Below are positions 18,791 to 47,304 of a DNA stretch of 64,000 nt, piece after piece (the first letter of the stretch is position 1; every line of letters begins with the position of its first letter). Under the pieces are notes generated by a model. The model was given only the letters and a program-made list of their open reading frames with translations, was not told the DNA's origin and did not search any database. This DNA comes from Torpedo marmorata (Eukaryota): contig OZ360224.1 of assembly GCA_977017645.1 (NCBI GenBank), positions 181,412,001 to 181,476,000 of the forward strand, written 5' to 3'. The position numbers and the translations under genes were made by a program.

Positions 18791-19587
18791 CAAGATACGA
18801 TTATTTTATTGTCACGAAATAAAACGGAAAATGAAATATTACACGAAAAAAATTTCCTTTAGTCTGCTGTAAGTCAGACAAAGAGTCACCATTAGTATTG
18901 CCCGGCGCCCTTTACAGTAAGAGAAAGAGAATCAAAAGAGAGTCCTTCCAGAGTCATTGAGTGTCTGTGAATTCACCTCCAGTGCTCCCACGGCAACCCG
19001 AGCTTCAGATCCAAACCTTTTATACGGTCAGGATGACTTCAGGGCCTGAGGCCCTTTGGGATCCCATCTTGCCCTCAGCACTCTCTTGAATCCCGGTTCC
19101 GATACCTGGTTCCCATGAGCCAGTCTCCAGCAACCGGCAGCCCGTGTGGATCCATCGACCGCAAGTCGTCAGCAGCCCGCAGCCTGTGAGGGTCCATCGA
19201 CCGTGTCACCGCAGACTGTGTGGGTCCTTTGGCCGCTGAGCACCTCGCTAGTCCGCTGTTGTGGTCACCGACCTGTAGGGTCGTCTCCTATGCTTCTCCT
19301 CAATGGGGTTGTGGGGGGGTGTTCTCCCCGTTTCTGGTGCCCTGCACTGGTCCACTGCTCCCCTGGAGTCTGCAACCCCTCGAGGCCGCTGCCAGCACAG
19401 GCGCCACCATCTTGGGCACAGACCCTGTGTTTGCATGATTTTATGTAAGAACACCGTCGGCTCCTTTAACAGGCCATTTGAAGCCTGTATGGAGCTCCGG
19501 CATTAGGACTGGGTGTCGAACCCTGGGGAGGAGTGCTGTGTCTCCACTACCCGCTCACCCCTGGTGCGCACCAGCGGCAGTGCCACT
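18791..19587 (-). mobile_element. ~800-bp non-coding retroelement family copy (further fragments at 17604-17845 and 18285-18775)
   Basis: Reverse complement aligns end to end with 59111-59892 and with 38977-39677. Tail gtgacaataaaataatcgtatcttg. Confidence 0.75.
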
Positions 19588-20030: not shown

Positions 20031-20342
20031 CCGCCCTTTCATGCCCCCCCCGCCCTCTGTTCTTTCTATCTCCCCCTCTCTGCAATTTAAAATATGTGCA
20101 TCCTCGTTTGCAGAGTTCTGATGAAGATCTCTTCAGCTTTGCTGCTCTCCATTGCAGGTTCTGTCTTTGTTAAAAGGTGGCTGAAAATGAAGGAGGTCTG
20201 AACCAGCACAATCTCGTGCACTGACTACGCGAGATCGTGGGTGCAACTTCTCAGGAACCGGCAGAGCTCTCCCCTTTCACAGGCAAGCAGTGGAAGGGTA
20301 GTTCATATTTCAAACAATTCTCGGGTACAATGCAATACTTAC

Positions 20343-20517
20343 TAGATGGTGGAAGCTTTGTCCACACATGTACCCCCATTCCTACACTTCATCTGACCAC
20401 ACGACGAAACTCTGCACTGGCCCACATTCCGGCCTACGTTAGGATGTCCCACTGGGATGCCAGGCATTCCAAACCTTCTGTCCTTGTTCGTCCGAACCAG
20501 CAACTCATAAATACAAC
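20343..20517 (-). CDS. EYS: EYS coding exon (end of LamG, start of EGF-like domain; 175 nt); coding frame missed by the ORF track
   Basis: Acceptor ttgcag|GT and donor CTA|gtaagt. Hand translation gives (G)CIYELLVRTNKDRRFGMPGIPVGHPNVGRNVGQCRVSSCGQMKCRNGGTCVDKASTI(Y). Phase 1 in, phase 2 out, which joins the flanking exons exactly. Confidence 0.95.
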
Positions 20518-21439
20518 CTGCAACAAACAGTGCAAAATAAAAGAGTCTCGTTCTGACAATTGTTTAACGGTTAAAGAAAGCACACTTGCATTGGTTATGT
20601 TTTGCAATAAAATTATATGTTCAAATTCCCCAAAAATTTGATTTAGAATTGAGAATCTCAAAGCTGGTTTTACCTTAAGGATTATATTATAAGGACAACT
20701 TACAGAAAGTAGGTTTGAGGACCAAACATTCGCAGAGATCTGAGCATATTTTCTCTTGTGGAGGGAGAACAAACAAGAGGAATACTTCCCAGAATTAACC
20801 AATTCAGCACACAGTTCTACACACAGAGGACTATGGAAGATCCCATCCAGAGAGAAGCACTAAAATCCACACTCCAGCCAGTCCTGCATGGACAGAGGGG
20901 CCACCTCTCAAATTAGATCTTAAATTGAGGTTAAAGGTCTTAGGTCCATGGGAATATTTTCAAGACAAACCACCCCGCAAAAACCTTACATCAGAACTGG
21001 CCAACCACTGACGCAGATGGCAAAGACTTTTCGATAAGCTCCCTTCCTGTCAAGAGTTCTGAATAGTCATCTACTGCAACATAACCTCAGCTTCTGTCCT
21101 TCTCTGATGTCACATGATATATTGAGTTTTACCAGCACTTTCTTTTATTTATTTCAGATTTCTGCCAACTTCTGTGTTTTGTACCTTACAGTTCCAGCAT
21201 TGCTTTTCTTTTCTCTCGACTGGTCTCAGCAATTCCACCCAGCCCACCCCCACCCCCACCCCCACGACACTCCTTCAGAGAGTTGAGGTTAACAAGCATT
21301 TATCGCTCTCTTGTAGGTGGCACCAACAGCATTCCTGTTGCCAAGTGGCATTTGACACGTAAAAAGCTGATGCACAGTTGAGGGATCATGGTACTGGAGG
21401 AAGTAAGTTGCCAAAGCCATACGACAGCTTCACCTCCTT

Positions 21440-23475
21440 TTACTTACCGCTTCAACAGGTCCCCACCAAAGAACATCAAGCCAACGTCTCACGTACCATC
21501 TCTAAACTCATCACTTCTGGTCATCTCCTTCCCACGGCCTCCAACCTCATTGTTTATCAACCCACACTGTCCGGTTCTACCTCCTACCCAAGATACACAA
21601 ACCCAATTGTCCTGGTAGATCCATTGTTTCCGCTTACTTCTGCCCCACCGAACTGATATCATCTTACCTGGCCTCCATTTTTTCCCCCTGGTCTAGTCCC
21701 TTCCTACCTACATCCATGATACCTAATGTGCCCTCCACCATTTCAACAACTTCCAATTCTCTGAACTCAACTGCCTCATTTTCACTATGGATGTCTAATC
21801 TCTCTACACTTCCATCCCCCATACTGAAGGTCTCAAAGCCCTTCGTTTCTTTTTGAACAACAGACCCAACCAGTCCCCCTCCACCACCACTTTCCTCTGC
21901 CCGGCAGTTCTCACCCTCAATAAATTCTCCTTTGACTCATCCCACTTTCTCCAAGTCAAAGGGGTAGCCATGGGTACCTCCATGGGTCCCAGCCATGCTT
22001 GCCTTTTGTTGGCAATGTGGAGCAATCCATACTACAAGCCTACATAGGCAAGGCTTTTCAACTCTTTCGCTGCTACATTGACAACTACATTGGCGCTGCC
22101 TCGTGCACCCACAATGAGCTCATCATCTTTATCCACTTTGCTGCTAACTTTCACCCCGACCTCAAATTCACTTGTTCCATCTTGAGCGACACTCTCCCCT
22201 TTCTCGATCTCTGTCTCCATCTCGGGAGACAACCTCTCGACTGACATCTTCTACAAACCCACCAACTCCCATAGCTACCTCAACTACACCCTTTCACATC
22301 CTGTCCTCTGTAAGGATTCTATTCCTTTCTCTCAATTCCTCCTTCTCCGTCGCATCTGCTCCCAGGATGAGGTCTTCCATTCCAGATCATCCGAGATATC
22401 CTCCTTTTTCAAGAAAAGTTGGCTTCCCCTCTACTGCCATCAACTCAGCTGTTAGTCCTTATGTATCTTCTCCATTTCCTGCACACCTGCCCAGAAATTC
22501 CTCTGCCCCTAGACGCAATAAGGACAGTATTACCCCTGTCCTCATCTATCATCGCACCAGCCTCCGCATCCAACATATTATCCTCCACAATTTCCGTCAC
22601 CTACAACACGATCCCACCACCAGACACATTTTCCCCTCTTCTCCTGTCTCCGCTTTCTGCAGGGAGCTCTCCCTCCGTGACTCCCTCGTCCACCCATCCC
22701 TTCCCACTAATCGTCCCCTTGGTACCTACCCCTGCGATCGCAGAAGTGCTACACTTACACCCTCACCTCCACCCTCACCACCATTCAGGGCCCCATATAA
22801 TCCTTCCAAGTGAAGCAACACTTCACTTGTGAATCTGCGGGAGTCATCCTACTGCATCCAGTGCTCCCGTTGTGGCCTCCTCTACATCGGAGAGACTGGA
22901 CGTAGACTGGGAGATTGATTCATTGAGACTTTCGCTCAGCCCGCAGCAATAGTGGGGATCTCCCAGTGGCCATCCATTTCAATCCCGCGGCCCATCCCAT
23001 GCCGACATGTCTGCCATGATCTCATGCACTGCCAAACAGAGGCCACCTCTCAATTCCATCTGGGCACTTCCCAACCAGATGGCACTAATATCGACTTTCC
23101 CAGTTTCCGTTCTGTCTCCCTCTTTTCCCCATCCTTCTGTCTCCTTTCCTCTAACTCTCCACACCCTTCCCTCTCCATTCAGGGAGTTATCCCCTCCCTC
23201 ATCACCTCAGCTTTTTTCTCTTATGCCCTTCCACCCATATCAACCTATAACCTCTTGTCTGTGGGCTTGTGCTCCTCCCCCTGCCCCTCCCCCCACCATT
23301 TTATTCAGGCGCCTGCCTGCTCTTTGCTCATACCTTGATGAAGGGCTCAAGCTCAAAACATTGTTTATGTAACTTTATCTTTGCTACATAAAGAATGCTG
23401 CGTGACTTTCTGAGTTTCTCCAGCATTTTTGTGTGAACTGCAATCACAGAGTCTGAAGATTTTCTTGTTTAACTC
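21440..23475 (+). mobile_element. Penelope-like retroelement (degenerate RT, GIY-YIG endonuclease, terminal repeat)
   Basis: RT motifs FLQVKGVAMGTSMGP and FRCYIDN(D). GIY-YIG region FTCESAGVI.YCIQCSRCGLLYIGETGRRLGD at ~22820-22915. Tail ataccttgatgaagggctcaagctcaaaac at ~23330. Confidence 0.88.
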
Positions 23476-27370: not shown

Positions 27371-27594
27371 CACAGCGGAGGGTGACCCTTTATTTCCTAC
27401 GCTGTGTGACCTGCTGAGATCCTCCAGAACAATTGTGTTTCGCTGCTTTACCATTTTTCAGGACAATTGCTGCTCTTCTATCTCAGGGGTATATGCCTGC
27501 ACCAACCCATATTTCCATACATTCTCATGAATCTCCCTCAAAGTGTCTCCTACTGAGTAACTCCGATGAAAAGAATTGCTTGAAATATTAAGCT

Positions 27595-28733
27595 TGTTCC
27601 TCTCTCATCACGATCCCTGACCTACTGCATTATCCCTCTACTCACGCTCCCTGACCCGCTGAGTTGTTCCTCACCTCACGCTCCCCGACCTGCTGAGTTG
27701 TTCCCCTCTCCTCACACTCCCTGACCTGCTGTGTAACCGCTCTCCTCACACTCCCTGACCTGCTGAGTTGTTCCTCTCCTCACGCTCCCTGACCTGCTGT
27801 GTAACCCCTCTCCTCACGCTCCCTGACCAGCTGAGTTGTTCCTCTCCTCACGCTCCCTGACCTGCTGAGTTGTTCCTCTCCTCACGCATCCTGATCTGCT
27901 AGTTGTACCCCTCACCTAACGCTCCCTGACCTGCTGAGTTGTTCCCCTCTCCTCACGCTCCCTGACCCGCTGAGTTGTTCCTCACCTCATGCTCACCGAC
28001 CTGCTGAATTGTTCCACTCTCCTCACGCTCCCTGACCTGCTGATTTGTTCCACTCTCCTCACGCTCCCTGACCTGCTGAGTTACCCCTCTCCTCACGCTC
28101 ACTGACCAGCGGTGTTGTTCACATCCCCTCATGCTCCCTGATCTGCTGAGTTGTTCCCCTCTCCTCACGCTCCCTGACCTGCTGAGATACCCCACTCTTA
28201 ATGCACCCGGCTCTGCTGAGTTGTTCCCGTCACCTAACATTCCCTGCCCTGCTGAGTTGTTCCCCACTCCCACGCACCCTGACCTGCTGAGATACCCCAC
28301 TCTTAATGCTCCCGGCTCTGTTGAGTTGTTCCCGTCACCTAACGCTCCCTGCCCTGCTGAGTTGTTCCCCACTCCTCACACTCCCTGACCTGCTGAGATA
28401 CCCCACTCTTAATGCTCCCGGCTCTGCTGAGTTGTTCCCCTCACCTAACATTCCCTGACCTGCTGTTACCCCTCTCCTCACGCTCCCTGACAAGCGGTGT
28501 TGTTCACATCCCCACACTCTCCCTGTCCTGCTGAGATACCCTTCTCTTAATGCTCCCTGCCCTGCTGAGTTGTTCCCCTCTCCTCACGCTCCCTGACCTG
28601 CTGAGTTACCCCTTTCCTCACGCTCCCTGACCTGCTGAGTTGTTCCCCTCTCCTCACGCTCCCTGACCTGCTGAGTTGTTCCCCGCTCCTCACGCATCCT
28701 GACCTGCTGAGTTACACCTCTCCTCACGCTCCC
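27595..28733. repeat. 33-36 bp minisatellite, block 1
   Basis: Tandem units ccctctcctcacgctccctgacctgctgagttac (34 bp) and a variant ending gagttgttc (36 bp). Confidence 0.97.
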
Positions 28734-31700
28734 TTTTTTTAAAAATAATTTTATTTAAATATTAAAATCACAAAATACATAAATCAAAAATAGTATATTA
28801 TTCAAAATACATGTGATATATTACCTCCCCCCCTCCCACCCTCCCCTCCCCAACCCCCCCAGCACTATTCTAAAAAAAAAGAAAAAAAAGAATGTTAGTT
28901 ATAAAGAAAAAAAAAAGAAAGAATTGAATAATAAAGAATTAAAGAGTTAAAGTGAGGAGAAAACAAATTACAAGCTAATTCTATTTATATATTGGAGGTT
29001 ATTTTTGCCAGCGGTACCAACTTCTAGAGAATTAATTCATACCCATAATTCTCATATATGGGCTCCAAATTTTCAAAAAGAAATGATAATTATTCCGTAA
29101 ATTATATGTAATTTTTTCCAATGGTATACAAGAACGTAATTCTGCATGTAATCTATCTAAATTCAAATCTAAATCTGATTTCCAAGCAATAGCGATACAT
29201 TTTTTTGAAACCGCTAAGACAATTCGTAAAAATTCTATTTGATACATATTCAATCTATTTCTAATACTAAATTTTTTAATATCTCCAAATAAAAATAACA
29301 TAGGATCCATTGGAACCGTAATATTAAAAATTCTATCCAAAAAATCTTTAACTTTAGACCAAAAATTTTGAATTTTTAAACATGACCATGTACAGTGTAC
29401 AAAAGAACCTATTTCATCCTTACATCTAAAACACATATCTGATAGTGCCGAGTTAAATTTCTTTAATTTTTTAGGTGTTAAATATAATTGATGAAAAAAA
29501 TTATATTGTACTAATCTATATCTAACATTAATAATTTTAGTCATACTCAATTTACATAATTCTATCCAATGTTTTTCATCTATATTAATATTTAAATCTG
29601 ATTCCCAACTTAATCTTGATTTATGTAATCCTACCTTAGGCATTTTTCTCTGAAGTAATTTATACATTTGTGATATAAATTTGTTAACATTTCCATTCGT
29701 AATTAATAATTCTAATCCATCCTGTCTTGGAGTTGTTAATTGATTCCCCAATTTCTCAACTAAAAATCCTCTAACCTGATAGTAAGCCAAAATTGTATTA
29801 TCCATTATTCCAAATTTTTCTTTCAACCTAGAGAATGTAACAAATCTTCCAGCCTCAAAACAATCTTTAATCTTCTTAATTCCTTTTTGAAACCATAGTT
29901 TTAAAAATTGATTATCAATAGAAAAAGGTAACAATAAATTCTGATACAATGGCATATTCAGAGACAATGACCCTTTTCGTCCTATCTCATTGTCTAACTG
30001 AGTCCAGATTTCCAATAAATGTTTAATAATCGATGATTTTTTCTTTTTAACTAATAATAATTTAGAATTCCATTTATAAATAATATCTTCTTTATATCTT
30101 TCCCCTATATTATTCAATTCTATATTAATCCAAGCAGTAGATTTAGTTAAATCAAAAAAATCATTAATAAACTTTAATTGAGCTGCCTTATAATAATATT
30201 GAAAATTGGGGAGTTGTAATCCACCCATCTCGTATTCCCAAGTTAATTTATCCATACTTACTCTTGCTAATTTTCCTTTCCATAGAAATTTTCTAATAAT
30301 AGTTTTTAAATCTTTAAAAAATTTTTGAGGAATTCCAAAAGGAATAGATTGAAAAAGATATTGAACTCTTGGAAAAATATTCATTTTAATACAATTCACT
30401 CTTCCCATTAAGGTAATAGGTAAATCTTTCCAATTCTCCAAATCTTTCTTTATTTTCTGAAATAAAGGTACATAATTTAATTTATATAAATTTTCCAATT
30501 TTGTATCTACTTTAACTCCCAGATATTTAATTCCTTCTTTAGCCCATTTAAATCCTGTAACTTCTTTACATTTAGTATAATCTCCTTGAGATAAAGCCAT
30601 TATTTCACTCTTATCTGAATTTATTTTGTAACCAGATATCTCACCGTACTCCCTCAATATCTTAGCTAATTGTTGAAGCGATCCAATAGATTTCGTCATA
30701 TATATTAATACATCATCTGCAAATAAACTAATTTTATGTTCTTCTGTACCTACTTTAATCCCATTTATATTAATATCTTTCCTAATCACTTCAGCCAACG
30801 GTTCTATTGCCAATACAAATAAAGCAGGTGATAAAGGGCATCCTTGTCTTGTTGACCTCAACAAAGGGAATTTAGATGATATCTGACCATTTGTAATTAC
30901 TCTAGCTGTAGGTTCTTTATATATAGTTTTAATCCAATTTATAAAAGTATTCCCAAATCCATATTTCTCTAAAACCTTAAATAAAAAATCCCATTCTAAT
31001 CTATCAAATGCTTTTTCTGCATCCAATGTTATCACCAGCGGCAAATCCTGTTTCCTTTTTTGCAACTTAATTAAACTTATTAATCTTGCTATATTATCCT
31101 TCGAATATCTATTTTTAATAAATCCTGCTTGATCTGAATGTATTAAAAACGGTAAAAACTTAGCTAGTCTGTTTGTCAAAATTTTTGCCATTAATTTATA
31201 ATCTACATTCAACAGTGATATAGGTCTGTATGACTCAGTTTTTAATACATCTCTATCTTTCTTTGGTATAACTGTAATAATAGCATTTAAAAAAGTTTTC
31301 GGTAATAAATGAGTTTCCTTAATTTGAGTCAATACTTCCATATATATAGGTATCAGTAAGTCTTTAAACTTCTTATAAAACTCTATCGGAAATCCATCAT
31401 GACTTTGAAGAAGGGCTCAAGCCTGAAACGTCAGTTATGTATTTCTACCTTTGCTACATAAAAGACACTGTTTGACCTGCTGAGTTCTCCAGCATTTGTG
31501 TTTTTTACTACATTATTACGGTGTCTACAGATTTTCGTGTTTACTTCATCATCACCAGGAGATTTACCACTTTTCAATGACGATAAAGCTTCAACTACTT
31601 CTCTCATTGTAATAGGTAAATCTAACATATCTCTATTAAAATTATTTAATTTAGGCAATGTAATTTTAGATAAAAAATTATCCATTTTTGTAACATCCTG

Positions 31701-32897
31701 ATCAATCTGCGAAGTATATAAATTCTGATAATATTCTCTGAAAGAATCATTTATTTCCTGAGGTTTATAAGTTATTTCACCAGTACTTATTTTTATAGCA
31801 TTTATAGTTTTAGAAACTTGTTCTTTTTTTAATTGCCATGCTAGAACTTTGTGCTCTTTCTCCCAATTCATAATATCTTTGTTTTGTTCTACCAATTAAT
31901 TTTTCTATTTTTCGAGTTTGTAATATATTATAATGCAATTTTTCCTAATTAAACGTTGTCTCTTAAAAATTGTTTTATTTCTTTGAAAATGTTTCTCCAT
32001 AAATTCAATCTCCCTTTCCAATTTTTCTTCTTCTTTCAAATAGTCTTTTCTAATTTTTGCCGAAAAACTTATTATCAAACCTCTTAGATATGCTTTTAAA
32101 GATTCCCAAATTATAAATTTATCATTAACTGAATTATTATTAATTCTTAAAAATTCCTGAATTTCTTTTCTTATATATTCACAAAAGTCTTTTCTATTTA
32201 ATAAAGAAGAATCTAATCTCCAATTATATACAGTTTTTTCTTTCTCTGGAATCATACATGTCATCAATAAAGGTGAATGATCTGAGATTATTCTTGCTTT
32301 ATAAGATATTTGAGTTACTCTATCCTGAATTTGTGAAGATATCAAAAACAAATCAATCCTTGAAAATGAGTTATGTCTAAAAGAATAAAATGAATAATCT
32401 TTTTCTCTAGGATTTAATTTCCTCCAGATATCTACCAGATTTAAATCATCCATTAAATTAATAATTCTTTTGACTATTTTAGGTCTAACAAATGTTTTAG
32501 TAGTTTTGTCCATGTTCGCATTTAGACAGCAATTAAAATCTCCACCAATTAAAATATTTTCCTTAGCCTCAGATAAATGTAAAAAAGTATCTTGAATAAA
32601 CTGTTCGTCATCTGGATTTGTAACATATAAATTTTAAAAAGTCCATGTTTCTGAATAGATTTGACAATGTATTAAAACATATCTACCAGCTACATCAGTC
32701 ACTACTGATTGTATTTTAAATGGTAATTTTTTATTAACTAAAATCGCTACACCTCTCGCTTTAGAGTTAAAAGATGAAGCTACGACATATCCCACCCATT
32801 CTCTTTTTAACTTTTGATGTTCCTTATCAATCAAATGTGTTTCCTGTAAAAAAGCGATATCCACTTTCAATTTTTTAATATATGCCAAAGTTTTTTT
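28734..32897 (-). mobile_element. L1-clade LINE, 5'-truncated inside the endonuclease; AT-rich ORF2 nearly complete
   Basis: APE motifs LQETH, GGDFN, SRIDLF and SDHSP. RT motifs YRPISLLNVD, RQGCPLSP and LFADD. C-terminal CFRC-x8-H-x4-C in the 769-aa ORF 29032-31341. A-rich tail at 28734-28740. Candidate TSD cctctcctcacgctcc (ambiguous because it is satellite sequence). Confidence 0.93.
31399..31438 (+). ncRNA. Minimal type I hammerhead ribozyme motif (U3 variant) within a solo 146-bp Penelope terminal unit (31401-31546)
   Basis: Stem I atgact/agttat; core UUGAAGA plus A; stem II gggc-tcaa-gcct; GAAA; palindromic ACGU in place of stem III; predicted cleavage after C31432. Unit flanked by a CATCAT duplication (31395-31400, 31547-31552). 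Activity untested. Confidence 0.65.
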
Positions 32898-35800
32898 CCT
32901 CTCCTCACGCTCCATGACCTGTTAGTTGTACCCCTCTCCTCACGCTCCCTCACCTGCTGAGTTACCCCTCTCCTCACGCTCCCTCACCTGCTGAGTTACC
33001 CCTCTCCTCACGCTCCCTCACCTGCTGAGTTACCCCTCTCCTCACGCTCCCTGACCTGCTGAGTTACCCCTCTCATCACGCTCACTGACCAGCGGTGTTG
33101 TTCACATCCCCTCACGCTCCCTGACCTGCTGAGTTACCCCTCTCCTCACGCTCCCTGACCTGCTGAGTTACCCCTCTCCTCACGCTCCCTGACCTGCTGA
33201 GTTACCCCTCTCCTCACGCTCCCTCACCTGCTGAGTTACCCCTCTCCTCACGCTCCCTCACCTGCTGAGTTACCCCTCTCCTCACGCTCCCTCACCTGCT
33301 GAGTTACCCCTCTCCTCACGCTCCCTGACCTGCTGAGTTACCCCTCTCATCACGCTCACTGACCAGCGGTGTTGTTCACATCCCCTCACGCTCCCTGACC
33401 TGCTGAGTTACCCCTCTCCTCACGCTCCCTGACCTGCTGAGTTACCCCTCTCCTCACGCTCCCTGACCTGCTGAGTTACCCCTCTCCTCACGCTCCCTCA
33501 CCTGCTGAGTTACCCCTCTCCTCACGCTCCCTCACCTGCTGAGTTACCCCTCTCCTCACGCTCCCTCACCTGCTGAGTTACCCCTCTCCTCACGCTCCCT
33601 CACCTGCTGAGTTACCCCTCTCCTCACACGCTCTCACCTGCTGAGTTACCCCTCTCCTCACCCTCCCTGACCTGCTGAGTTACCCCTCTCATCACGCTCA
33701 CTGACCAGCGGTGTTGTTCACATCCCCTCATGCTCCCTGATCTGCTGAGTTGTTCCCCTCTCCTCACGCTCCCTGACCTGCTGAGATACCCCACTCTTAA
33801 TGCACCCGGCCCTGCTGAGTTGTTCCCATCACCTAACGCTCCCTGCACTGCTGAGTTATTCCTCTCTCCTCCCGCTCCCTGACCTGCTGAGTTATTCCTC
33901 TCTCCTCCCGCTCCCTGACCTGCTGAGTTATTCCTCTCTCCTCCCGCTCCCTGACCTGCTGAGTTATTCCTCTCTCCTCCCGCTCCCTGACCTGCTGAGT
34001 TATTCCTCTCTCCTCCCGCTCCCTGACCTGCTGAGTTGTTCCCCTCTCCTCACACTCCCTGACCTGCTGATTTGTTCCCCTCTCCTCACACTCCCTGACC
34101 TGCTTTGTTGTTACCCTCTCCTCACGCTCCCTGACCTGCTGAGTTACCCCTCTCCTCACGGTCCCTGATCTGCTGAGTTGTTCCCCTCTCCTCACGCTCC
34201 TTGACCTTCTGAGTTGTTCTCCTCTCCTCACGCTCCCAAACCTGCTGAGTTACCCCTCTCCAAACGCTCCCTGACCTGCTGAGTTACCCCTTTCCTCACG
34301 CTCACTGACATGTTGAGTTGTTCCACTCTTCTCACGCTTCCTGACCTGCTGTGTTACCCCTCTCCTCACATTCCCTGACCTGCTGAGTTACCCTCTGCTC
34401 AAGCTCTCTGAACTGCTGAGTTGTTCCCCTCTTCGCAGGGTCCCTGACCTTCTGAGTTACTACTCTCCTCATGCTCCCTGTCCTGCTGAGTTACTCTGCT
34501 CACGCTCCCTGACCTGCTGAGTTTTTCCTCTCCTCATGCTCCCTGACCTGCTGAGTTACCCCTCTCCTCACGCATCCTGACCTGCTGAGTTACCCCTCTC
34601 CTCACGCATCCTGACCTGCTGAGTTACCCCTCTCCTCACGCATCCTGACCTGCTGAGTTACCCCTCTCCTCACGCTCCCTGACCTGCTGAGTTTTTCCTC
34701 TCCTCATGCTCCCTGACCTGCTGAGTTACCCCTCTCCTCACGCATCCTGACCTGCTGAGTTACCCCTCTCCTCACGCATCCTGACCTGCTGAGTTACCCC
34801 TCTCCTCACGCATCCTGACCTGCTGAGTTGTTCCTCTCTCCTCCCGCTACCTGATCTGCTGAGTTGTTCCCCTCACCTCCCGCTCCCTGACCCGCTGAGT
34901 TGTTCCCCACTCCTTACGCTCCCTGACCTGCTGAGTTACCCCTCTCCTGACGCACCCTGACCTGCTGAGATACCCCACTCTTAATGCTCCCGGCTCTGCT
35001 GTGTTGTTCCCCTCACCTCACACTCCCTGACCTGCTGAGTTGTTCCCCTCACCTCACGCTCCCTGACCTGCTGAGTTATGCCTCTCCTGACGCTCCCTGA
35101 CTTGCTGAGTTACCCTCTCCTCACCCTCCCTGACCTGCTGAGATACCCCACTCTTAATGCTCCCTGGCCTGCTGAGTTGTTCCCCTCTCCTCACGCTCCC
35201 TGACCTGCTGAGTTGTTCCCCTCTCCTCACACTCCCTGACCTGCTTTGTTTTTCCCCTCTCCTCACACTCCCTGTCCTGCTGAGTTGTTCCCCTCTCCTC
35301 ATGCTCCCTGACCTGCTGAGTTGTTCCCCTCTCCTCACACTCCCTGACCTGCTTTGTTTTTCCCCTCACCTAACACTCCCTGTCCTGCTGAGTTGTTCCT
35401 CTCTCCTCCCACTCTCTCACTGCTGAGTTGTTCCCCTTACCTAACGCTCCCTGCCCTGCTGAGTTGTTCCCAACTCCTCACGCTCCCTGATCTGCTGAGT
35501 TGTTCTCCTCTCCTCACGCTCCCTGTCCTGCTGAGTTGTTCCTCTCTCCTCCCGCTCTCTCACCTGCTGAGTTGTTCCCCTCACCTAACGCTCCCTGACC
35601 TGCTGAGTTGTTCTCCTCTCCTCACGCTCCCAAACCTACTGTGTTACCCCTCTCCTCACATTCCCTGACCTGCTGAGTTACCCCACTCTTCATGCGACCT
35701 GACCTGCTGAGTTATCCCTCTCCTCACGCTCCCTGACCTTCAGAGTTACCCCTCTCCTCACGCTCCCTGACCTGCTGAGTAACCCTTCTCTTAATGCTCC

Positions 35801-36641
35801 CTGACCTGCTGAGTTGTTCCCCTCACCTCACGCTCCCTGACCTGCTGAGTTGTTCCCCTCACCTCACGCTCCCTGACCTGCTGAGTTGTTCCCCTCTCCT
35901 GACGCTCCCTGACCTGCTGAGATACCCCACTCTTAATGCTCCCGGCTCTGCTGAGTTGTTCCCCTCACCTAACATTCCCTGACCTGCTGAGTTACCCCTC
36001 TCCTCACGCTCCCTGACCTGCTGAGTTACACCTCTCCACATTCTCCCTGACCTGCTGAGTTGTTCTCCTCTCCTCACGCTCCCAAACCAGCTGTGTTACC
36101 CCTCTCCAAAAGCTCCCTGCCCTGCTGAGGTACCCCTCTCCTCACGCTCACTGACATGTTGAGTTGTTCCCCTTCTCCTCATGCTCCCTGACCTACCGAG
36201 TCGCTCCCCTCTCCTAACGCTCCCTGACCTGCTGAGTTGTTCTCCTCACCTATCACTCCCAAACCTGCTGTGTTACCCCTCTCCTCACACTCACTGACAT
36301 GTTGAGTTGTTCCCCACTCCTCACGCTCCCTGACCTGCTGAGATACCACTCTCCTCATGCTCCCTGACTTTCTGAGTTGTTCCACTCTCCTCACGCTCCC
36401 TGACCTGCTGAAATGTTCCTCTCTTCTCAGGGTCCCTGACCTTCTGAATTGCCACTCTCCTCACACTCCCTGTCCTGCTGAGTAACCCCTCTCCTCACGC
36501 TCCCTGAGCTGGTGAGATACCCCTCTCTTCATGCTCCCCGCCCTGCTGAGTTGTTCCCCTCTCCTCACGCTCCCTGACCTTCTGAGTTACCACTCTCCTC
36601 ACACTCCCAGACCTGCTGATTTACCCCTCTGCTCACGCTCC
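32898..36641. repeat. 33-36 bp minisatellite, block 2 (with higher-order duplications)
   Basis: Same unit. The variant gaccagcggtgttgttcacatcccc recurs at ~33087, 33361 and 33703, as at 28104. Confidence 0.97.
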
Positions 36642-38104
36642 TATTATTAGTAGAGGGGCAGCTTGTTTCGCAAAACAAACTTATCTGACCCTTATAAAAC
36701 CACATAAATCTGGTCTTTTCAACAGCGTAGAATTAAGGCGCCATCTGTATGCATTAGCTTGTTTATCTGGCATTACCATAGACAAAATCAAGGGCGCGTG
36801 GTCCGATAGAAGTCTGGCTTGATATTCCGATTCAATCACTCTGCCTTCTAATTGTGCAGAAATCAGGAAATAGTTAATTCTGATGTAAGAATCATGGGGC
36901 TTTGAATAAAAGGACTAGTCTCTAGCTTGATGGTGCAACTGTCTCCATACATCTATTAGGTTTAAATCTTTCATGAAAGCCAAGGTTGTTTTAGCCGCCC
37001 TGGCTTTCTTAACTGTCTTTGCCGATTTATCCAGAATGGGATCCAGACAGAAGTTAAAATCCCCACCAATCAAAACGTTTTGTCGTCCTCCTGTCACTCT
37101 CAAAAAAATATTCTGCATAAATGACTCGTTGTCAAAATTTGGTGCATAGAGATTCAGGAGTGTCCAGGGTTCTGAGTAAATCTGACAATGTACTGTAGAA
37201 ATATAGAAATTGGGCTTACAAACATAGAAAGTATGTTTTAAAATTACCTCAGAAATTGTTGCAAGTAAGACTCAACTTAAGTTATTCAGTCAAGACGCTT
37301 CCAGAGAGCAGGGTACAAGCTTGAGGCTATCAAACTCTCAGATAAGGAAACAATTCTCACCTTTTCTACAAAGCCATATCCTGATATCTGCCCAATCCTT
37401 TTAACACAATAGCGCTAACTGGCTTTGCCATTCGAGTCAACGACCTGTCAACAAGCCGCCCATTCATAACTGGCTTCCCGCACAAATGCAGCTGATTCAA
37501 CTTTACAACCTGTCAGTCACGATTAAGTTTATCAATGGCTTTAGAAGCAAACAGCTACACTCAAAGTGCCAGTTCAGTTTCGATCTAATATTGTTTCTGC
37601 CTAGAAGTTTCTTTCCCCATTGTTAACATTGATGGCTTGATATTATTGTGAGACTGATCATTTGCATGTGATAATTAAAGACTAAATATCAGGCATACAG
37701 AATGTGGATGTTACTGTGTATTGGAAGCAATCTTTCCAGACTACTGCCAATTTCATATGCAAGAAATGATATCTTTTAATTATGACTTGTACATGTGAAT
37801 AACTGTTTGATGTCAACCATTTCCCTGTCTTTAGAAAATAGCAATGCAAAATGTAAAACATAAGCTTGTAACATTAAGTTCAAAGAGATGCCTATCAGAT
37901 TTGTATGCAAGAAAATGCCTTATATACTGTACTGTTTCCCTGGGATCTTTGAATGAGGTTCACCAGTATTAGGGAGGTGACTTTGTCTACCTACCACTAA
38001 CTACTGCTCATTCTCGCTGGCGTGACTCTAATAAATTCTCTTGTGCGTTGTACTGTGTGGTGTGGTTGTACTTTTTGTACCTTGACAGGACCTAACTATT
38101 ACAT

Positions 38105-38122
38105 TGGCGTAGTCGGCAATCT
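38105..38122 (+). promoter_or_regulatory. ERV primer-binding site, tRNA-Ser type
   Basis: TGGCGTAGTCGGCA (14 nt) is complementary to the vertebrate tRNA-Ser 3' end (…UGCCGACUACGCCA) as recalled. It starts 1 nt after the 5' LTR. Confidence 0.8.
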
Positions 38123-38976
38123 CTCGCTGGGAAGATCACCACGTATGGTGTAAGCGGCCACAAGAACACTGGGACATCGGACGGAGCAGCAGTGCACCCC
38201 TGGGACCCTTGAGCCCGAACTCCTTCACTGACCCAGGGTAACATCGTGGTCCCTCATACGAGGTCGATCTGGTTCCCTGCCGAGAGAAAAAGAACCAACA
38301 CACAAGACACAGTACCTATGGTGAGATAAGTATGAGATGATGTTTAGTTTACGGTGTTGAAAAAAGTGATGAGAATATGGTGAGATAAGTTTGAGATGAT
38401 GTTTAGTTTACGGTGTTGAAAAATGAAGTGATGAGAATAAGTTTACAGTGTTGATGATTAAGTTGTGTTTCACTTCATATTATCAGTGGAAAGATACTAT
38501 CTGACTCTTGGGTTTCGTTTTTAGGCAGCTGGTTGCGTCTCAACCAACTCTATTTAAACTATTCGGACATACGGTGATGCACCACAGTAAATTACGATAC
38601 TTGACTATTTGGAACCTACCGACCTCTTTGGCAAAAAGATGCCTCTAAAAAATGGAAGGAAAGAAGATTAGGGAATCGATAGAGGAAGCCCGCAAGAAGT
38701 GGGATGATGAAAAAAAAAAAGAGCTGGAGAGATAATGCGAGCCGCAGGGGGATAGGGATATGAACTCAGAATGGAGAACACAAATCCTGGCAGATTTTAG
38801 TCAGAATGTGAATGGCACGACAAACAGCAGGAGAAATAACACACGTGAGAAATAAAATGATGAAGTTTGGGTTCCCAATTGCATGTCTGGCATATCAACC
38901 TTGCTTGATAACCAAAGTAGAGCTAATCATGATTGGCAGCTCCCGCCCTATCTATCCCCCCCTGTGCAGTAATTTT

Positions 38977-39677
38977 TTAAAGGAGCCGACGATGGTTTTA
39001 TTTAAGATCCCGCGACCACGGGGTCTGCGCCCAAGATGGCAGCGCCTTTTAACCGGCAGCAGCCACGAGGGGCTGCAGATTCCGGGGAAGCGGAGGATTG
39101 GAGCAGGGCACCAGTGGACGGGAAGATCACCCCCCCATCTGAGAAGGAGAAGCGGAGGAGACGACCCACGGGACGGTGACCATGGCGGCGGACCGGTGAG
39201 GGGCTCTGAGGATGAAGGACCAGTGCATGTGGTGGGCTGCTGGCGACTCGAGGCGAGGAACCCGCGGAGGCTGTGGGCTGCTGGAGACTGCTGTCGGGGG
39301 ACTCACGCCGGGCTGCAGACTGCTGGAGGCTGGCTCGAACTGGCTGGAGGAGTACCAGGTATCGGAACCGGGATGCGAGGGGGTGCCGAGGGCGACCTGA
39401 CTGTGTTGGAGGTTCGGATCTGGAGCTCGGGATGCCGTTCGTTTGGACTGGACTCTGTGGCTGCGGAGGCTGCGGAAGCGCTGGAGCGAATCTATGGACA
39501 CTCGGTGACTCTGGGGGGACTCTCTTTTGCTTCTCTTTCTCTGACTAAGGAATGTTAGAGGTGCCTAGGCAATTTCTGCCGGTGGCGAATCTGTCTGCCT
39601 TGCAGCAGGCAAAAAGAAATTTCATGGAATATGACACTGTCTTATTACTATGGCAATAAATTGAATCTTGAATCTTG
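38977..39677 (+). mobile_element. 5'-truncated copy of the ~800-bp non-coding retroelement, nested in the ERV
   Basis: Aligns to 59255-59890. Tail ggcaataaattgaatcttgaatcttg. CpG-rich, so probably young. Confidence 0.8.
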
Positions 39678-42600
39678 TTTGCTACAGTGTCGATTTTTAC
39701 TGCTACTTTTTCTTCAACTCAGAACATTCACTTTTAAACCACCCTTGTTTTTGTTAAAAACACTCCAATTTTCTTTAAGCTGAGGACTCTTTAAACTAAA
39801 TAATAAATTAACCTAGTGTTCCTGCAAACCGGGAAAGGAAATGCAATCAATAAATTAACAAGGAATGCCTGAATATTTCCATTCCATTGAAATGCAGTAA
39901 CTCAGCAACAGAGACTAGACAAATGAGACAGTGAGAAAATTAAAAGACTAAAAACTTAACATTTATACTACTTTGACTCCTAGAGACAAAATGAGAATGA
40001 TTTAAGAGATATTGTTAAAATACAGCAGATATGCAGTCCAGCTACGGGATAATTAGCTGAAATGAGGTAGGATGTGAAAGTGAAGACCTGTACTTTTCCT
40101 ATACTCCTAAAGTTCTGCACAGAGCCGTCCATTTTTTTTCAGTATCTGAATTTTTCACTTCATTCAGTCTGCATTCTTTTGCCTGTAAATGACAGGGAAC
40201 CCTGAATGGGAGGTCCCGGGTGGGGGGAATAAACAAGCTGCTTTACGGTTAGTCAACAGACCGGATTTGCCAGACATGTAACCAGTGCACTTACAGTAGA
40301 GGGACGCCTCTGCCGCTGAGAAACAACAATGGGAATAAAGGGGTTGTGCCCCATCCCGATACTCAGTTATAGATTATGCCGGCTGGCCAAATGTACAGTA
40401 CCTGATATCTTTGTTACTTGATTATGTGCACAATGATACCCACATTGGCAAGGAGGGAATGATAAATATATTACTGTAAAATACCTCACTGCAGACATGG
40501 TGCCATCCAAATTTTAGTGAAGCAGACGGAAGAAAAAAAAGAATAAAGAAATGCTTCATGCCAACAACACAATGTCGGTAAAGGGCCACCATGCCAGCAG
40601 GGACGTACCTCTTGCCATGAAGCCATTTTTCTTGTTTATAATTAGCCATTTTTCTTATTTATAATCAGATTTTACTGAATTATCACGAGTGCATTGCTGT
40701 AAATATTCCTTGACGATAGTACATGTTTTAGTCGGTGGATTAAGGCTAACCCAACCACAATTATACTGCTTTGATTGTTAAGATAATACTGCCTTGATTG
40801 TTAAGACAATACTGCTTTGACTGTTAGTTAAGATTTTGTTTTACTGGTTTGACCATTAGTTAAAAATTTTAAGGGAAATAATTCTCTGCTATGGACCCCC
40901 TGAGGCATTGAATTCAGATAATGGTCCTCACTTTGTAGCCGAGATAAATGAAGAATTGTATAAGGAATTGGGGATCCTGCAGTGTTCCCACTACTCCCAT
41001 CAAACCCAGACAGCAGGAATAGTGGGATGTGCGAATAGAACATTAAAAACTAAGCTGGCAAAATTGACTGAGGAAACAGGGCTAAAATTGGCTAAAAGTG
41101 CTACCCCTAGCATTGTTTAAAATGCGGGTGACACCGCAGGCTAAGTCGGGGTTATCTGCTGCAGAGATGGTCCACGGACAGCCAATACGGACACCTGGGG
41201 GACCAAAGCCCGCACCGCCAGTAGGGATGGATTTATTATTATTAGGCAATGACCTGAGCAAATATTTGGGTAATCTTAACTAAAACTTTTTTGAGTGGTG
41301 CATCAAGCCCACCTAAAGAAGGGTGATCCAACAGAATCGAAGGGGTGAATATCCTAACGTTGAACCTGAAAATTGCGTCCTCGTAAAGAATTGGGATCGG
41401 AAGAAATTGGGAACTCTGTGGAAAGGGCCGTTCCAGGTCCCGCTAACAACACTGACTGCAGTAAAGCTTGAAGGACAGCCTCACTGGATACACCGAACAG
41501 ACTGAAGGAAAAAAGGCCCACCTAAAATGACTTTTTATTATAACAGACTGAGAAAAAAGGCCACCTACAACATGAGAACTTTATTGTTATGCCTTTTTGT
41601 TGCCTTGACATTTAAACTAAATGCCGGAGTCGTGACTGAAAAGAGGAATTTTGGGTGACAGCATAATACCTTTTTAAATGTGTCTTACTTATATGTTGAT
41701 AAGATGAATGTTTATAGCTGATGAATATATTCCCATATTCTAACCAACTCAACGGGAGGTATCCCCTCAAGACCCAGCCCCTACCCCATACAGGAAGTGT
41801 TAGAATGGATTTTTGAGACTGAACAGATCACAGACAAGTGAAAATAAGGATAAACATGTGGAGGACAGCAGGGTATATCATGACATCTTTTATTAAATGG
41901 TATCTACAGTTATATAACCATACCAAAGCTGGGAGAAAGTTGATGTAAAACTTTTACTGCAAACAATCAGACTTATTTTATTTTGACATAAGACAAAGGC
42001 ACGGTTGACTACTAACTGGACGAGGTCCTGTTAATTGGGATATGTGGTTCCCTCTATACGTCATGTACAGAAGCTACACCAATACCCTGATTGGCCAGAG
42101 GTAACCGGGTCCAGGACAAAGAGAGGTATCTCTGAGATGGAGCAGGTCTTTATGATTCTGTTCCCCTTCGACGGTATGAGAAAGGCATCCAAAGAGCTGA
42201 TTCGCCGACTCAGCGTTGGGGCTATTGGCTAATGAAACGGCTAAGGGGCTCCAAGTAGCTGGGAAGGTGGAGTCTGAACTGTCAGCAGAGATGGTTGCCA
42301 TCCGTACTGTGACAATCCAGAACCGAATGGACCATGATTTTATTCTGGCTGGTCGTGGGGAGACCTGTAAAATTATAGGTCAAGGCTGCTGTACGAATAG
42401 CTCTGACAACAGTAAATGGGTGAACCACATGCATAAAGAGAGATACAGGACTTATGAAAAATTGGTGCAAAATGCCTGACTATTACACCTACCCTTTGCA
42501 CAATGCTTTGCTGCTGGGTGGATCGAGTGGCTGGAAAAAACTTTTATTATACTCCTTGCTACTCTTGTAGATTTACTGTTTTTATGCTGTCCAAGTATTC

Positions 42601-45322
42601 TCCACAGACCTTTTAGTGGTTATCATCAAATGATAAACAGGGGGGAATGTAGAAATATAGAAATTGGGCTTACAAACATAGAAAGTATGTTTTAAAATTA
42701 CCTCACAGAAATTGTTGCAAGTAAGACTCAACTTAAGTTATTCAGTCAAGAAGCTTCCAGAAAGCAGGGCACAAGCTTGAGGCTATCAAACTCTCAGATA
42801 AGGAAACAATTCTCACCTCTTCTACAAAGCCATATCCTGATATCTGCTCAATCCTTTTAACACAATAGCGTTAACTGGCTTTGCCGGTCGAGTCAACGAC
42901 CTGTCAACAAGCAGCCCATTCATAACTGGCTTCCCGCACAAACGCAGCTGATTCAACTTTACAACCTGTCAGTCATGATTAAGTTTATCAATGGCTTTAG
43001 AAGCAAACAGCCACACTCAAGGTGCCAGTTCAGTTTCGATCTAATATTGTTTCTGTCTAGAAGTTTCTTTCCCCATTGTTAACATTGATGGCTTGATATT
43101 ATTGTGAGACTGAACATTTGCATGTGATAATTAAAGACTAAATATCAGGCATACAGAATGTGGATGTTACTGTGTATTGGAAGCAATCTTTCCAGACTTC
43201 TGCCAATTTCATATGCCAGAAATAATATCTTTTAATTATGACTTGTACATGTGAATAACTGTTTGACGTCAACCATTTCCCTGTCTTTAGAAAATAGCAA
43301 TGCAAAATGTAAAACATAAGCTTGTAACAATAAGTTCAAAGAGATGCCTATCAGATTTATATGCAAGAAAATGCCTTATATACTGTACTGTTTCCCTGAG
43401 ATCTTGAATGAGGTTCACCAGTATTAGGGAGGTGACTTTGTCTACCTACCACTAACTACTGCTCATTCCCGCTGGCGTGACTCTAATAAATTCTCTTGTG
43501 TGTTGTACTGTGTGGTGTGGTTGTACTTTTTGTACCTTGACAGGACCTAACTATTACAGTACCATCACATATCTTCCTGCCGAGTCAACAACCGTGTCCC
43601 CAACCACCACCGGAACATTTTTATTAAGATAGCTACCCCCTTAGCTTTGGAGTTAAAAGAAGATGCAGCTATCTGTCCCACCCAACCTCTTTTTAATTTT
43701 CTATGCTCCTGCTTTGTAAGATGCGTTTCCTGTAAGAAAACTATATCCGCCTGTAGCTTTTTAAGGTGTGCCAAGACTCTTTTCCTCTTTATGGGTCCGT
43801 TCAATCCATTAACATTAAAATTAAGACATTTTATAGTCTTACTCATTTGAATATATGTACAGTTCCATCCCATTTTTACAGCCCCTTTGTATATTTTTTC
43901 TATGGTGCGTCTGTCCCTTTTTACAATAATATATATATATCTGTTCAGCACTGACGATGACGCTAAAAAAAAACCCCAAAAGCCCGCGAAAAAACACCGC
44001 AGATTTAAAAAAAAGTCCCTTCCCCTTGCTCCAGCACCAACAACAACACCCACTCCTTTGGCGCCATCAACCCCCTCAAGACGGGGTGCACTTAGTGCCC
44101 TTTTTGGCATACTTAATTAACTAGCTAACCAGCTAATCTCGTACCGCCCAACTCCCCCCGGGCTCTTTGCCTCTTTATATTATTTACCTTAAAAACCATT
44201 ATTTACACGATATAACACAACTCAGTATAACGATACTATTACAGAAAACAAAACCATCCCTCTTAACCAGCGTCCCACTTTTAAGTTCAATCAAAGTCCT
44301 TCTTTCCTCCTCGTTCTTTTCTCCAAACCTTAGGATCTCCCCGGGAGGTCTCGAACAAAGTCCGCAACCTCCTGGGGTGTCCCGAAGAACTTTCTGCCTC
44401 CTTCTGGTGTGTCGAGCCTCAGCGTCGCGGGGTGGAGTAGCGCATATGGGATCCCCTTCGTTCTCAGCTGCCACTTCACTGTGACGAACGCCCTCCAACG
44501 CTTCACCAAGGCCGCACTCAGGTCTGGGAAGAAAAGTACCTTCTCCCCCTCTGGATCAATGGGCCCGTCATTTTCTCTTGCACGTGCGGTTGCCGCACGT
44601 AGGATCCTCTCCCGGTCCTGGTAGTTGAGCAAACGCACCAGGACTGGTCTTGGTCGTTGGCCTGGGTCTGGTCGGGGCCCGAGGGTTTGGAGGGCCCTTT
44701 CTATGAATAAAGTTTTTAAAAAGTTTTCCTGGCCCAGGATCTTTGGGATCCACCTTTCAAAAAAAACCCACTGGATCTTTCCCCTCCTTCAGCCCAATTA
44801 TCCTGATATTATTCCTCCTGTTGAAGTTCTCCAGCCTATCAAGCTTCTCCAAAATATTGTCTCTCTCCACTCTCCATGCATCTATATTATTTTCCTGCTT
44901 TTCTAGCCTCTCCTGGAGGTCCTCCATTTTATCTTCAACCTCCCCCACTCGGGAGGTTAAAGCTCCAAACGAGTTCTTCAGCTCCCTGATCCCAGCTGTG
45001 AGCTCTCCAAACTTGGCTTCGAGCCCAGTAATCTTGCCGGCAAGAGCCTGCACAGCGTGCAGGATATCCCGCGATGTGGGCTCTGGGGCCCCACTCGCCT
45101 CTTCCAGCGCCGGTGTCATAATGGAAGTTCCCAAACCATTGATATCGGCAACCTGGAGGCTTCTTCTTCCACAGAAACTTGGGTGTTTTGTCTTCTTTCA
45201 CATATTTGGAGATATTTATGTATTTAATGCTAAACTGACTGTTCTAAATGGCTTTAAATATCGGTCTATCAGGGAGCCCTTGGGTCCGTGTTTTCTCCTT
45301 ATCTCCGCATCACGTGACCCCC

Positions 45323-46225
45323 GTTGTTCCCCTCTCCTCACGCTACCTGACCTGCTGTGTTACCCCTCTCCTCACGCTCCCTGACCTGCTGAGTTGTTCC
45401 CCTCTGCTCACGCTCCTTGATCTGCTGAATTACCCCTCTCTTCATGCTCCCTGACCTGCTGAGTTGTTCCCCTATCCTCATGCTCCCTGACCTGCTGAGT
45501 TGTTCCCCTATCCTCATGCTCTCTGACCTGCTGAGTTGTTCCCCTCTCCTCATTCTCCCTGACCTGCTGAGTTACTCTTCTCCTCACGCTCCCAGACCCG
45601 CTGTGTTACCCCTCTCCTCACGCTCCCTGACCTGCTGAGTTACACCTCTCCTCACACTCCCTGACCTGCTGAGTTACCCCTCTCCTCACGCTCCCTGACC
45701 TGCTGAGTTACCCCTCTCCTCATTCTCCCTGACCTGCTGAGTTACCCCTCTCCTCATTCTCCCTGACCTGCTGAGTTACCCCTCTCCTCATTCTCCCTGA
45801 CCTGCTGAGTTACCCCTCTCCACACACTCCCTGACCTGCTGTGTTACCCCTCTCCTCATTCTCCCTGACCTGCTGAGTTACCCCTCTCCTCACGCTCCCT
45901 GACCTGCTGAGTTACCCCTCTCCTCACGCTCCCTGACCTGCTGAGTTACCCCTCTCCTCATTCTCCCTGACCTGCTGAGTTACCCCTCTCCTCATTCTCC
46001 CTGACCTGCTGAGTTACCCCTCTCCTCACGCTCCCTGACCTGCTGAGTTACCCCTCTCCTCATTCTCCCTGACCTGCTGAGTTACCCTCTCCTCACGCTC
46101 CCTGACCTGCTGAGTTACCCCTCTCCTCACGCTCCCTGACCTGCTGAGTTACCCCTCTCCTCACGCTCCCTGACCTGCTGAGTTACCCTCTCCTCACGCT
46201 CCCTGACCTGCTGAGTTGTTCCTAT
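45323..46225. repeat. 33-36 bp minisatellite, block 3
   Basis: Same unit, very homogeneous at 45660-46200. Confidence 0.97.
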
Positions 46226-46659
46226 CACTTTCTGTTTCTATTTCTTCATGACGGCTGGTGATTGAACTAGTGGCTGTCAATAACAGTTAAACAAAGGTAA
46301 CTAAGGAGATGGTTGTGTTTTGCGATCCTGTCGAGAAAACAGCCAGTCATGAAATACTACTGACAGTAAAGTCAATGTTTAGAGTAAAATGCTGCAAGTT
46401 AGTTAGCAAATAAGAATCAACGTCACCTTGCGCCATGATGAGAGATAAATGACCTCTTCATTATTTTGTTGCATTATTTTGCAGACATTTTTTCTCAGTT
46501 TTATTGATTAAAGTACACCTTCAATAAAATATCAAAATTCTGCAGCAAAATAAAACATCAAGCTGCTGTGTAAAGACAAATGGTCATTTTATCTTGTTTT
46601 ATGTTCAGATTTCATACATATCATCTGAAAGTTCAACGACGAGAGTGAGAAGATGTTAC

Positions 46660-46804
46660 CTCGGAAGCCATCACTGAAATGAGTTCCATTTGGCAGAAGC
46701 TCTGGAGTGTACTCGCTGTAACCTCCCACGTAAAACTGGCTGAAAACATTGAGACCCATCAAAGTCCCAGCGGAAGTGCATGTTTTATTTCTTTGGTTGT
46801 CCAC
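46660..46804 (-). CDS. EYS: EYS coding exon (laminin G domain; 145 nt)
   Basis: Acceptor ttttaag|GTG and donor GAG|gtaaca. Translates VDNQRNKTCTSAGTLMGLNVFSQFYVGGYSEYTPELLPNGTHFSDGFR(G); GLNVFSQFYVGGYSEYTP is characteristic of EYS. In phase with both neighbouring exons. Confidence 0.96.
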
Positions 46805-47304
46805 CTTAAAACAAACAGTTCGTAAAAAAATTAATGCAAACCATTTTTGTGTTGAACTTTAATGACTTAACTTTTGAACACATTCAAATTTACCATGATG
46901 CTCACCACTTTGGATCTTGCAAGAGATTAAATCATTCTCTCAGTGCCTCAACACATTATTTTGTCGACTACATCAGAAGCCACCAGCTATTTTAAGTGAA
47001 AATACTAGCAAAGTCACAATACCATCCTTCGTATCTTAACCTTGCAGCCTCCAACCTTCCAGAATCCTGGTGAGATTTTTACAATGCTGCTTGTTGCCTC
47101 TGAACGTTTCACATTATCTACCAATTACTTAAAATGTTGATCCTTCTTTAGGGAAGACTGATGCCTGGAACAGATAATTCGATTAGTTTCACCCTGTGCT
47201 TTCCTCAAATCTGCGGAGCTTTTACCCTCAGTGATTGCTGTGGCACTACTGTAACCGAGAATGTGTATTATCTTTCTATCTTTCATATCTACTATCTCCT
47301 TCGT

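Follow-up and report, generated by a model that had tools for sequence, protein, structure and literature searches.

A minisatellite of ~165 units in Torpedo marmorata was probably born inside a single old Penelope-type tail, behind that tail's probable decayed hammerhead ribozyme, and later split by two long interspersed elements (LINE-1s). It lies in contig OZ360224.1 of assembly GCA_977017645.1, in the stretch from 181,412,001 to 181,476,000 of the forward strand. We call this whole stretch of 64,000 nucleotides the window and number it from its first letter. The array and its inserts fill much of an intron of a gene that we take to be EYS.

The array is long, and its unit is short. Tandem Repeats Finder (TRF), at period 34–36, reports arrays at 27594–28734 (32.5 copies), 32898–36641 (107.5) and 45329–46217 (26.0). 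A wrap-around parse gives 165 units of at least 30 bp (32, 107 and 26 in three blocks, A to C), summing to 5,793 bp within a complex of 18,686 bp (27560–46245).
27595..28733, plus strand: array block A, 32 full units, the most diverged block (mean pairwise core divergence 0.199)
32898..36641, plus strand: array block B, 107 full units, including recent duplications that are still exact (one repeat of 398 bp) and blocks in common with A
45323..46215, plus strand: array block C, 26 full units, the most homogeneous (0.078), mainly of a 34-bp form
The unit has G or C at 22 of 36 bases and starts five bases past the would-be hammerhead cleavage site. Its core GACCTGCTGAGT, searched with at most one mismatch, occurs 134 times in the window against 0.40 expected; 130 matches fall within the arrays, and the other four (1411, 2868 on the minus strand, 27408 and 31474) all fall in short dispersed tails. 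The original prediction had described a ~5.8-kb array with more than 100 copies of a ~36-bp segment, whose core recurs in tails near 1411, 2870 (reverse) and 31473. Copy number, total length and shared core all agree with our counts, and both flanking sequences that it gave were located, at 27561–27606 and 46202–46244. The unit length needs refinement: the period is 34–36 bp, and at the right end the commonest form is 34 bp.

Several comparisons support reading the three blocks as one interrupted array, with a strong link between A and B and a weaker one to C. Five consecutive units at 28046–28221 (A) and 33646–33820 (B) differ at four places across 17 non-consensus positions. Four variant types with at least two substitutions are common to the two blocks, and an exact match of 119 bp spans the LINE-1 between them. 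Block C has the same unit, strand and a compatible phase, and an exact match of 100 bp to B. Mean pairwise divergence falls from A (0.199) through B (0.162) to C (0.078), and block B contains adjacent block duplications, including the exact one of 398 bp. Such duplications and the gradient would favour growth in place. Polar growth has been described for minisatellites, in a survey of minisatellites born in mobile elements (PMC3389668).

On its right side, the array abuts a sequence that recurs elsewhere.
46216..46244, plus strand: remainder of a repeat tail, dispersed in sequencing run X1
21052..21160, plus strand: old decayed tail outside the complex, the closest relative of unit and right flank in the window
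Two public sequencing runs, X1 and X2, share words with the right flank; X2 has a share of 0.06 and a single contig over 35 bases, with the array site outside it. From X1, a contig of 1,233 letters spans 46154–47300 with 18 different letters and one gap (~1.6%). Beyond the flank this contig enters a third unit at least, which shows that the array is present in a relative ~1.6% away. Depth in X1 is 119 at 46226–46264, compared with 14.5 on unique flank. At least seven X1 contigs exit at 46243 into continuations unlike one another (agreement 0.55), and at least four enter at 46203, where the upstream consensus ends in ACAGATGCTGA in place of an array unit. Because these contigs match and then diverge, the last 14 bases of the unit together with the right flank are a dispersed repeat.

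Alignment within the window leads to the same place. Of 11 stretches chosen by hand, 7 align to the last unit with the right flank, each so well that no more than 2 of 300 shuffles equal it. Unit and right flank are collinear with the tail at 21.1 kb over 21089–21155. We also collapsed the locus, joining its flanks, and aligned it to the masked window. In an end-to-end alignment of this collapsed locus to the 21.1-kb tail, 1 of 1000 shuffles does as well; when the right flank alone is shuffled, 7 of 1000 do. Independently defined tails supply four of its six best window-wide matches. Its alignment to a decayed copy at 20115 is not significant (492 of 1000 shuffles as good). In a profile built from nine tails, the unit core is the top match outside the training set (E 0.03), and shuffling either flank leaves that score no lower. 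These results support the assignment of unit and right flank to what appears to be a dispersed repeat tail.

On the left, the array is preceded by a candidate ribozyme remnant.
27557..27593, plus strand: decayed minimal-hammerhead-like motif, with CCGATGA at 27563–27569, GAAA at 27582–27585 and putative cleavage after 27589
Nine of the ten fixed letters in the core boxes CUGANGA and GAAA match, the exception being a C for U4. The motif has an extra A at 27570, a 3-bp helix II (AAG/CTT) and a palindromic ATAT at 27585–27588. Minimal hammerheads of Penelope-like elements likewise have an extra base between positions 9 and 10.1 and a palindromic 15.2–16.2. Core, helix II and palindrome all occur within the 60 bases that precede the array, a combination that also turns up in 10 of 10,000 dinucleotide-shuffled sequences and in 2 of 3,012 60-mers from the window. 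This descriptor is passed by only one of seven known tails. Spacing to the GACCT motif is 33, compared with 36–45 in five window tails. At its gathering threshold Rfam gave no match in the scan, left flank included, and neither the descriptor, Rfam nor a covariance model built from six window hammerheads (R1) found a hammerhead inside the arrays. Below E 1, R1 recovers its six training copies alone. Since the right side already puts the array inside a tail, the left flank is quite likely to be that tail's dead ribozyme.

Two further sequences bear on this flank. A 6-bp hairpin (GCTTGA AATA TTAAGC) at 27578–27593 shares bases with the second hammerhead box and reaches to where the array starts, perhaps as a result of quasi-palindrome correction. 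A look-alike of the left flank at 28–56 of the window passes the pairwise shuffle and fails window-wide (30 against 24–35), and we dropped it as support.

The original prediction had called the left flank a decayed CTGATGA…GAAA hammerhead and the two flanks halves of one tail. The first claim survives insofar as the minimal descriptor is passed at a fitting distance, with no profile or covariance detection to go with it. The second holds for the right half, through dispersal in X1 and collinearity at 21.1 kb; the left half is only probable, being absent from alignment, profile and covariance scores.

Several observations weigh against a single-tail origin behind a dead ribozyme. The left flank lacks the G10.1–C11.1 pair and has an A-U closing pair instead. 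Its helix I is broken, with at best three of four pairs after a one-base shift, and the predicted fold does not form it. The hammerhead core alone is common (1,375 of 10,000 dinucleotide shuffles; 47 of 3,012 window 60-mers), and the descriptor was composed after the left flank had been seen. When the left flank by itself is shuffled, the score against the 21.1-kb copy is equalled in 165 of 1000 trials, and that against the nine-tail profile in 111 of 300. R1 does not detect the left flank even at E 10, and the 21.1-kb copy also escapes it. The variant CCTACTGAGTAACTCC occurs at 27548–27563 and again, 73 bases on (about two unit lengths), in unit 1; the first occurrence may be a worn unit or part of a further tail, which would shift the left boundary. 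Pairwise matches of the collapsed locus never exceed the best window-wide shuffle (41–42 against 31–43). No variant type with at least two substitutions links C to A or B among the parsed units. The parent tail family would be tied to a Penelope reading frame solely via its similarity to other tails. Finally, the orthologous site in the sole relative seen, that of X1, is already expanded and offers no unexpanded allele.

These points feed an alternative that we regard as unlikely, in which the unit came from a tail fragment without the ribozyme half, or from a local copy of a neighbouring fragment, and the hammerhead-like flank arose by chance or by separate insertion.
27385..27450, plus strand: a distinct piece of tail with no hammerhead, 150 bp to the left of the array; no other single stretch of the masked window matches the unit as well
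Such an origin would explain why the left flank contributes nothing to alignment, profile or covariance scores, and it draws on the frequency of the core given the base make-up of that flank. The fragment itself has no hammerhead, matches the unit best of any single sequence and shares CCT(C)ACGCT with it. Set against this, core, helix II and palindrome occur together, on the right strand and at the right distance. In addition, AGCTT, which spans the left boundary, has a collinear counterpart in the 21.1-kb copy, and the right flank of the array resembles the 21.1-kb type, not the 27.4-kb type.

How would one tail have given rise to the array? A short direct repeat bounds it at both ends.
27594..27601, plus strand: direct repeat TTGTTCCT, left copy, 8 bp
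46216..46223, plus strand: direct repeat TTGTTCCT, right copy, 8 bp
The right copy stands where, in other tails, a pyrimidine-rich stretch follows GAG. PMC3389668 sets out a published model in which minisatellites start from direct repeats of 5–10 bp, a span that TTGTTCCT fits. Under a single-tail origin, 36 bases between the two 8-bp copies of one tail would have been duplicated in place, through slippage or unequal exchange between copies 36 bases apart. The 34-bp form and the block duplications would have arisen next, with growth by DNA-level exchange, and two LINE-1 insertions would then have divided the array. The single-tail origin, the start by slippage and the DNA-level growth are our inference.

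The ribozyme most likely plays no part in array growth. The unit does not include it, and it runs antisense to the host gene, which suggests that the array should grow, and the host RNA be processed, independently of it. As it is also decayed, the array is not a retrozyme. We see the array as selfish or neutral filler. DNA structure offers little further help. G4Hunter-type scores reach 1.2 or more in 10–17% of 25-base array windows compared with 2.8% elsewhere, a canonical G-quadruplex with loops of at most 7 has just one match, and G-quadruplex drive is a weak possibility, not evidence. Predicted DNA hairpins across three units are weak (-5.4 and -6.9 kcal/mol).

It is very improbable that the array is instead a mobile, multi-locus repeat, inserted as a ready concatemer by Penelope machinery in a retrozyme-like or rolling-circle manner and modified later. 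Precedent exists: a study of non-long-terminal-repeat (non-LTR) retrozymes and hammerhead satellites (10.64898/2026.07.22.740005) describes tandem non-autonomous derivatives of Penelope terminal repeats in vertebrates, including one chondrichthyan. The unit here is without a ribozyme and shorter than the 51–972 bp given there. Layered block duplications and the divergence gradient point to slow local growth, and the summed X1 depth on units is ~45 times single copy per unit position, which hints weakly at one array or a few but should not be read as a copy number. That the three blocks have nothing to do with each other or stem from misassembly is scarcely credible: assemblers may mis-size long near-identical runs such as the 398-bp one, and block C is without diagnostic shared variants, but diverged, ordered variants recur on both sides of the first LINE-1, X1, an independent run, has three or more units next to this right flank, and insert junctions carry ordinary duplications.

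The array is divided by a nested set of later insertions.
28734..32897, minus strand: LINE-1 a, 5'-truncated near the start of open reading frame 2 (ORF2), with its poly(A) end at the left junction
31401..31546, plus strand: solo Penelope-type tail inside LINE-1 a, with a near-intact minimal hammerhead and CATCAT on either side
36642..45322, minus strand: LINE-1 b, with 5' end, ORF1 and endonuclease domain present, broken by an LTR element
37194..43558, plus strand: decayed, endogenous retrovirus-like LTR element, with LTRs at 37194–38103 and 42648–43558 and GTAC on either side
LINE-1 a matches RVT_1 (1.7e-42) and human L1 ORF2p (4.3e-112) and has no ORF1. The 16-bp overlap at its junctions is in unit phase and reads as a target-site duplication. 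LINE-1 b matches LINE-1 ORF1p at E 0.0005–0.0008, together with Transposase_22 clusters, which rules out a Tx1-type identity. Its reverse transcriptase, 3' end and a matching target-site duplication are all missing at the locus, the opposite of the usual truncation, and this suggests that a later deletion probably cut it.

The nesting gives an order of events. The LTR element sits in LINE-1 b and splits its endonuclease domain, the halves of which align in order to LINE-1 a at 62% and 72%; the order of insertion is therefore array, LINE-1 b, LTR element. Similarly, the solo tail sits in LINE-1 a. The two LTRs are identical at 885 of 910 aligned bases (Kimura two-parameter distance 2.8%), and the integrase of the element gives a weak rve match under the cut-off (E 0.012). 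The array predates this LTR pair yet holds far younger parts, which suggests that its turnover continued after the insertions. Two L1s, an endogenous retrovirus and smaller elements had been predicted in the array; all are there, with the correction that the LTR element sits in LINE-1 b and not directly in the array. The tail reported near 31.4 kb is also present, and its place is inside LINE-1 a. A dispersed repeat of ~0.7 kb has three copies, at 38977–39636 (inside the LTR element), 18827–19580 and 59146–59880.

Penelope-type tails are frequent in the window as a whole. Nine tails of several subtypes occur in 64 kb, most with T instead of C at core position 3.
1343-1460, 2845-2947, 13870-13951, 17350-17437, 18137-18250, 21052-21160, 23329-23445, 27385-27450 and 31401-31546: Penelope-type tails
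21500..23471, plus strand: broken Penelope-like element with a hammerhead-bearing tail (23328) at its end, the comparison copy that ties tails to Penelope-like elements
One piece of the broken element matches clusters carrying PF26215 (score 0.97), which we take to be a family tied to Penelope-like elements, and its translation shows a GIY-YIG-like motif by eye; a Pfam search with seven pieces gave no supporting match. Six window tails align readily to a minimal hammerhead fold (paired cells 88.9%), and their both-side changes in helix I depend on one divergent copy. The original inventory of tails sharing the unit core listed true tails and omitted the fragment at 27385–27450. In public collections the tail patterns have no loci in viral contigs, and the long pattern has none in metagenomes; a shorter pattern has 16 metagenome and 10 genome loci, with a tail-like context in none of the 26. 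Two other tandem regions lie in the window. One, at 10766–11671, is pyrimidine-rich and degenerate, with units of 20–23 bp, and lies inside an apparent pair of DNA transposon ends. The other is a 26-bp minisatellite at 14554–14617 and 16838–16917, into which a LINE of 2.2 kb has inserted, much as in the main array but on a small scale.

The complex makes up most of the 26-kb host intron, as predicted; by measured span the share is ~70%.
20345..20539, minus strand: host exon left of the intron, start of an EGF domain
46655..46828, minus strand: host exon right of the intron, laminin G
Within the laminin-G exon, the X1 contig differs from the window by four adjacent base changes at 46778–46781, which by reading turn a cysteine codon into lysine.

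LINE-1 junctions in and near the array suggest that these elements of the animal prefer a CCT/GA target, which the array multiplies. The left junctions are CGCTCCC|T for LINE-1 a and CGCTCC|T for LINE-1 b, no more than one base apart in unit phase. At 49.56 kb (49557) another repeat holds a third LINE-1 3' piece, which is related to LINE-1 a and stands after CTTCCT; two of three paralogs of the interrupted repeat go on GATGG. All three left junctions (28734, 36642 and 49557) stand after CC and before T, and in two the interrupted sequence goes on TGA. CCTGA is found 19.9 times per kb in the array, compared with 1.3 times elsewhere. The suggested preference is drawn from three junctions, of which that of LINE-1 b may be a deletion breakpoint. 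Going further, the array might be a self-made landing pad whose CCT/GA sites drew two LINE-1s to one unit point and then further elements, adding 18.6 kb to the intron; we hold this idea to be doubtful.

How does the locus compare with known systems? Large arrays in mouse are said to offer one parallel: Kelly in 1994 and Bois in 1998, both cited in PMC9659126, reportedly described minisatellites inside MaLR-type LTRs and B1 short interspersed elements, with units of 4–6 bp. Those arrays and ours are alike in being large, in lying in a retroelement terminal repeat and in having halves of the element as flanks. They differ in unit length, 34–36 bp here, and in the higher-order blocks found here.

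Minisatellites born inside mobile elements are common, according to PMC3389668 and PMC9659126. The former (Ahmed and Liang 2012) counts 7,276 of them in human DNA, of which 300 lie between direct repeats. In that text, as here, an internal segment of one copy is amplified in place, with a short direct repeat and polar growth. Our array also falls within its definition of a minisatellite (unit of at least 20 bp, GC of at least 40%, at least two copies). TRF match among our units is 74–91%, below a 95% filter that belongs to the survey and not to the class. With respect to its criterion of overlap and 70% likeness, the right boundary enters a dispersed repeat and the tail profile gives E 0.03. 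Unlike the Alu, L1 and ERV (endogenous retrovirus) parents named there, the parent here is a Penelope-type tail. Moreover, Alu-derived arrays, those of Jurka and Gentles (2006) as cited there, average 2–3 units, compared with ~165 here, later divided by nested insertions.

The ribozyme side can be placed in the same manner. The motif of the window tails is that of the minimal hammerheads of Penelope-like elements described by Cervera and de la Pena (2014, PMC4209133), with core boxes, an extra base after position 9, a palindromic 15–16 and solo truncated copies. Unlike those, the left flank has C at U4, A-U at 10.1–11.1, a helix II of 3 bp and a broken helix I, and is a fossil at best. The non-LTR retrozymes and hammerhead satellites of 10.64898/2026.07.22.740005 are likewise tandem repeats akin to a Penelope terminal repeat; in contrast to our array, they carry a ribozyme in each unit of 51–972 bp, and here the ribozyme is excluded from units of 34–36 bp. 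We considered this identity for our array and ruled it out, its units being without a hammerhead and 34–36 bp long against ~50 or more. A literature search, with subscription papers, Repbase and supplements outside its scope, gave no description of a minisatellite that had arisen in a Penelope tail of a shark or ray. We class the locus as a large, well-preserved case of a probably transposon-derived minisatellite, with no new mechanism and no working ribozyme.

A long minisatellite seldom leaves its origin visible, with the parent readable on both sides. Probable parent halves, a direct repeat, a growth gradient and datable inserts come together here, so that orthologous sites in related species could put the short-direct-repeat model to a direct test and show when the array grew. 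In this reading, ~70% of a 26-kb intron goes back to the duplication of 36 bp. If the same segment, between two pyrimidine-rich microhomologies, had expanded in other tails, such tails would be a recurrent nursery of minisatellites in cartilaginous fishes.

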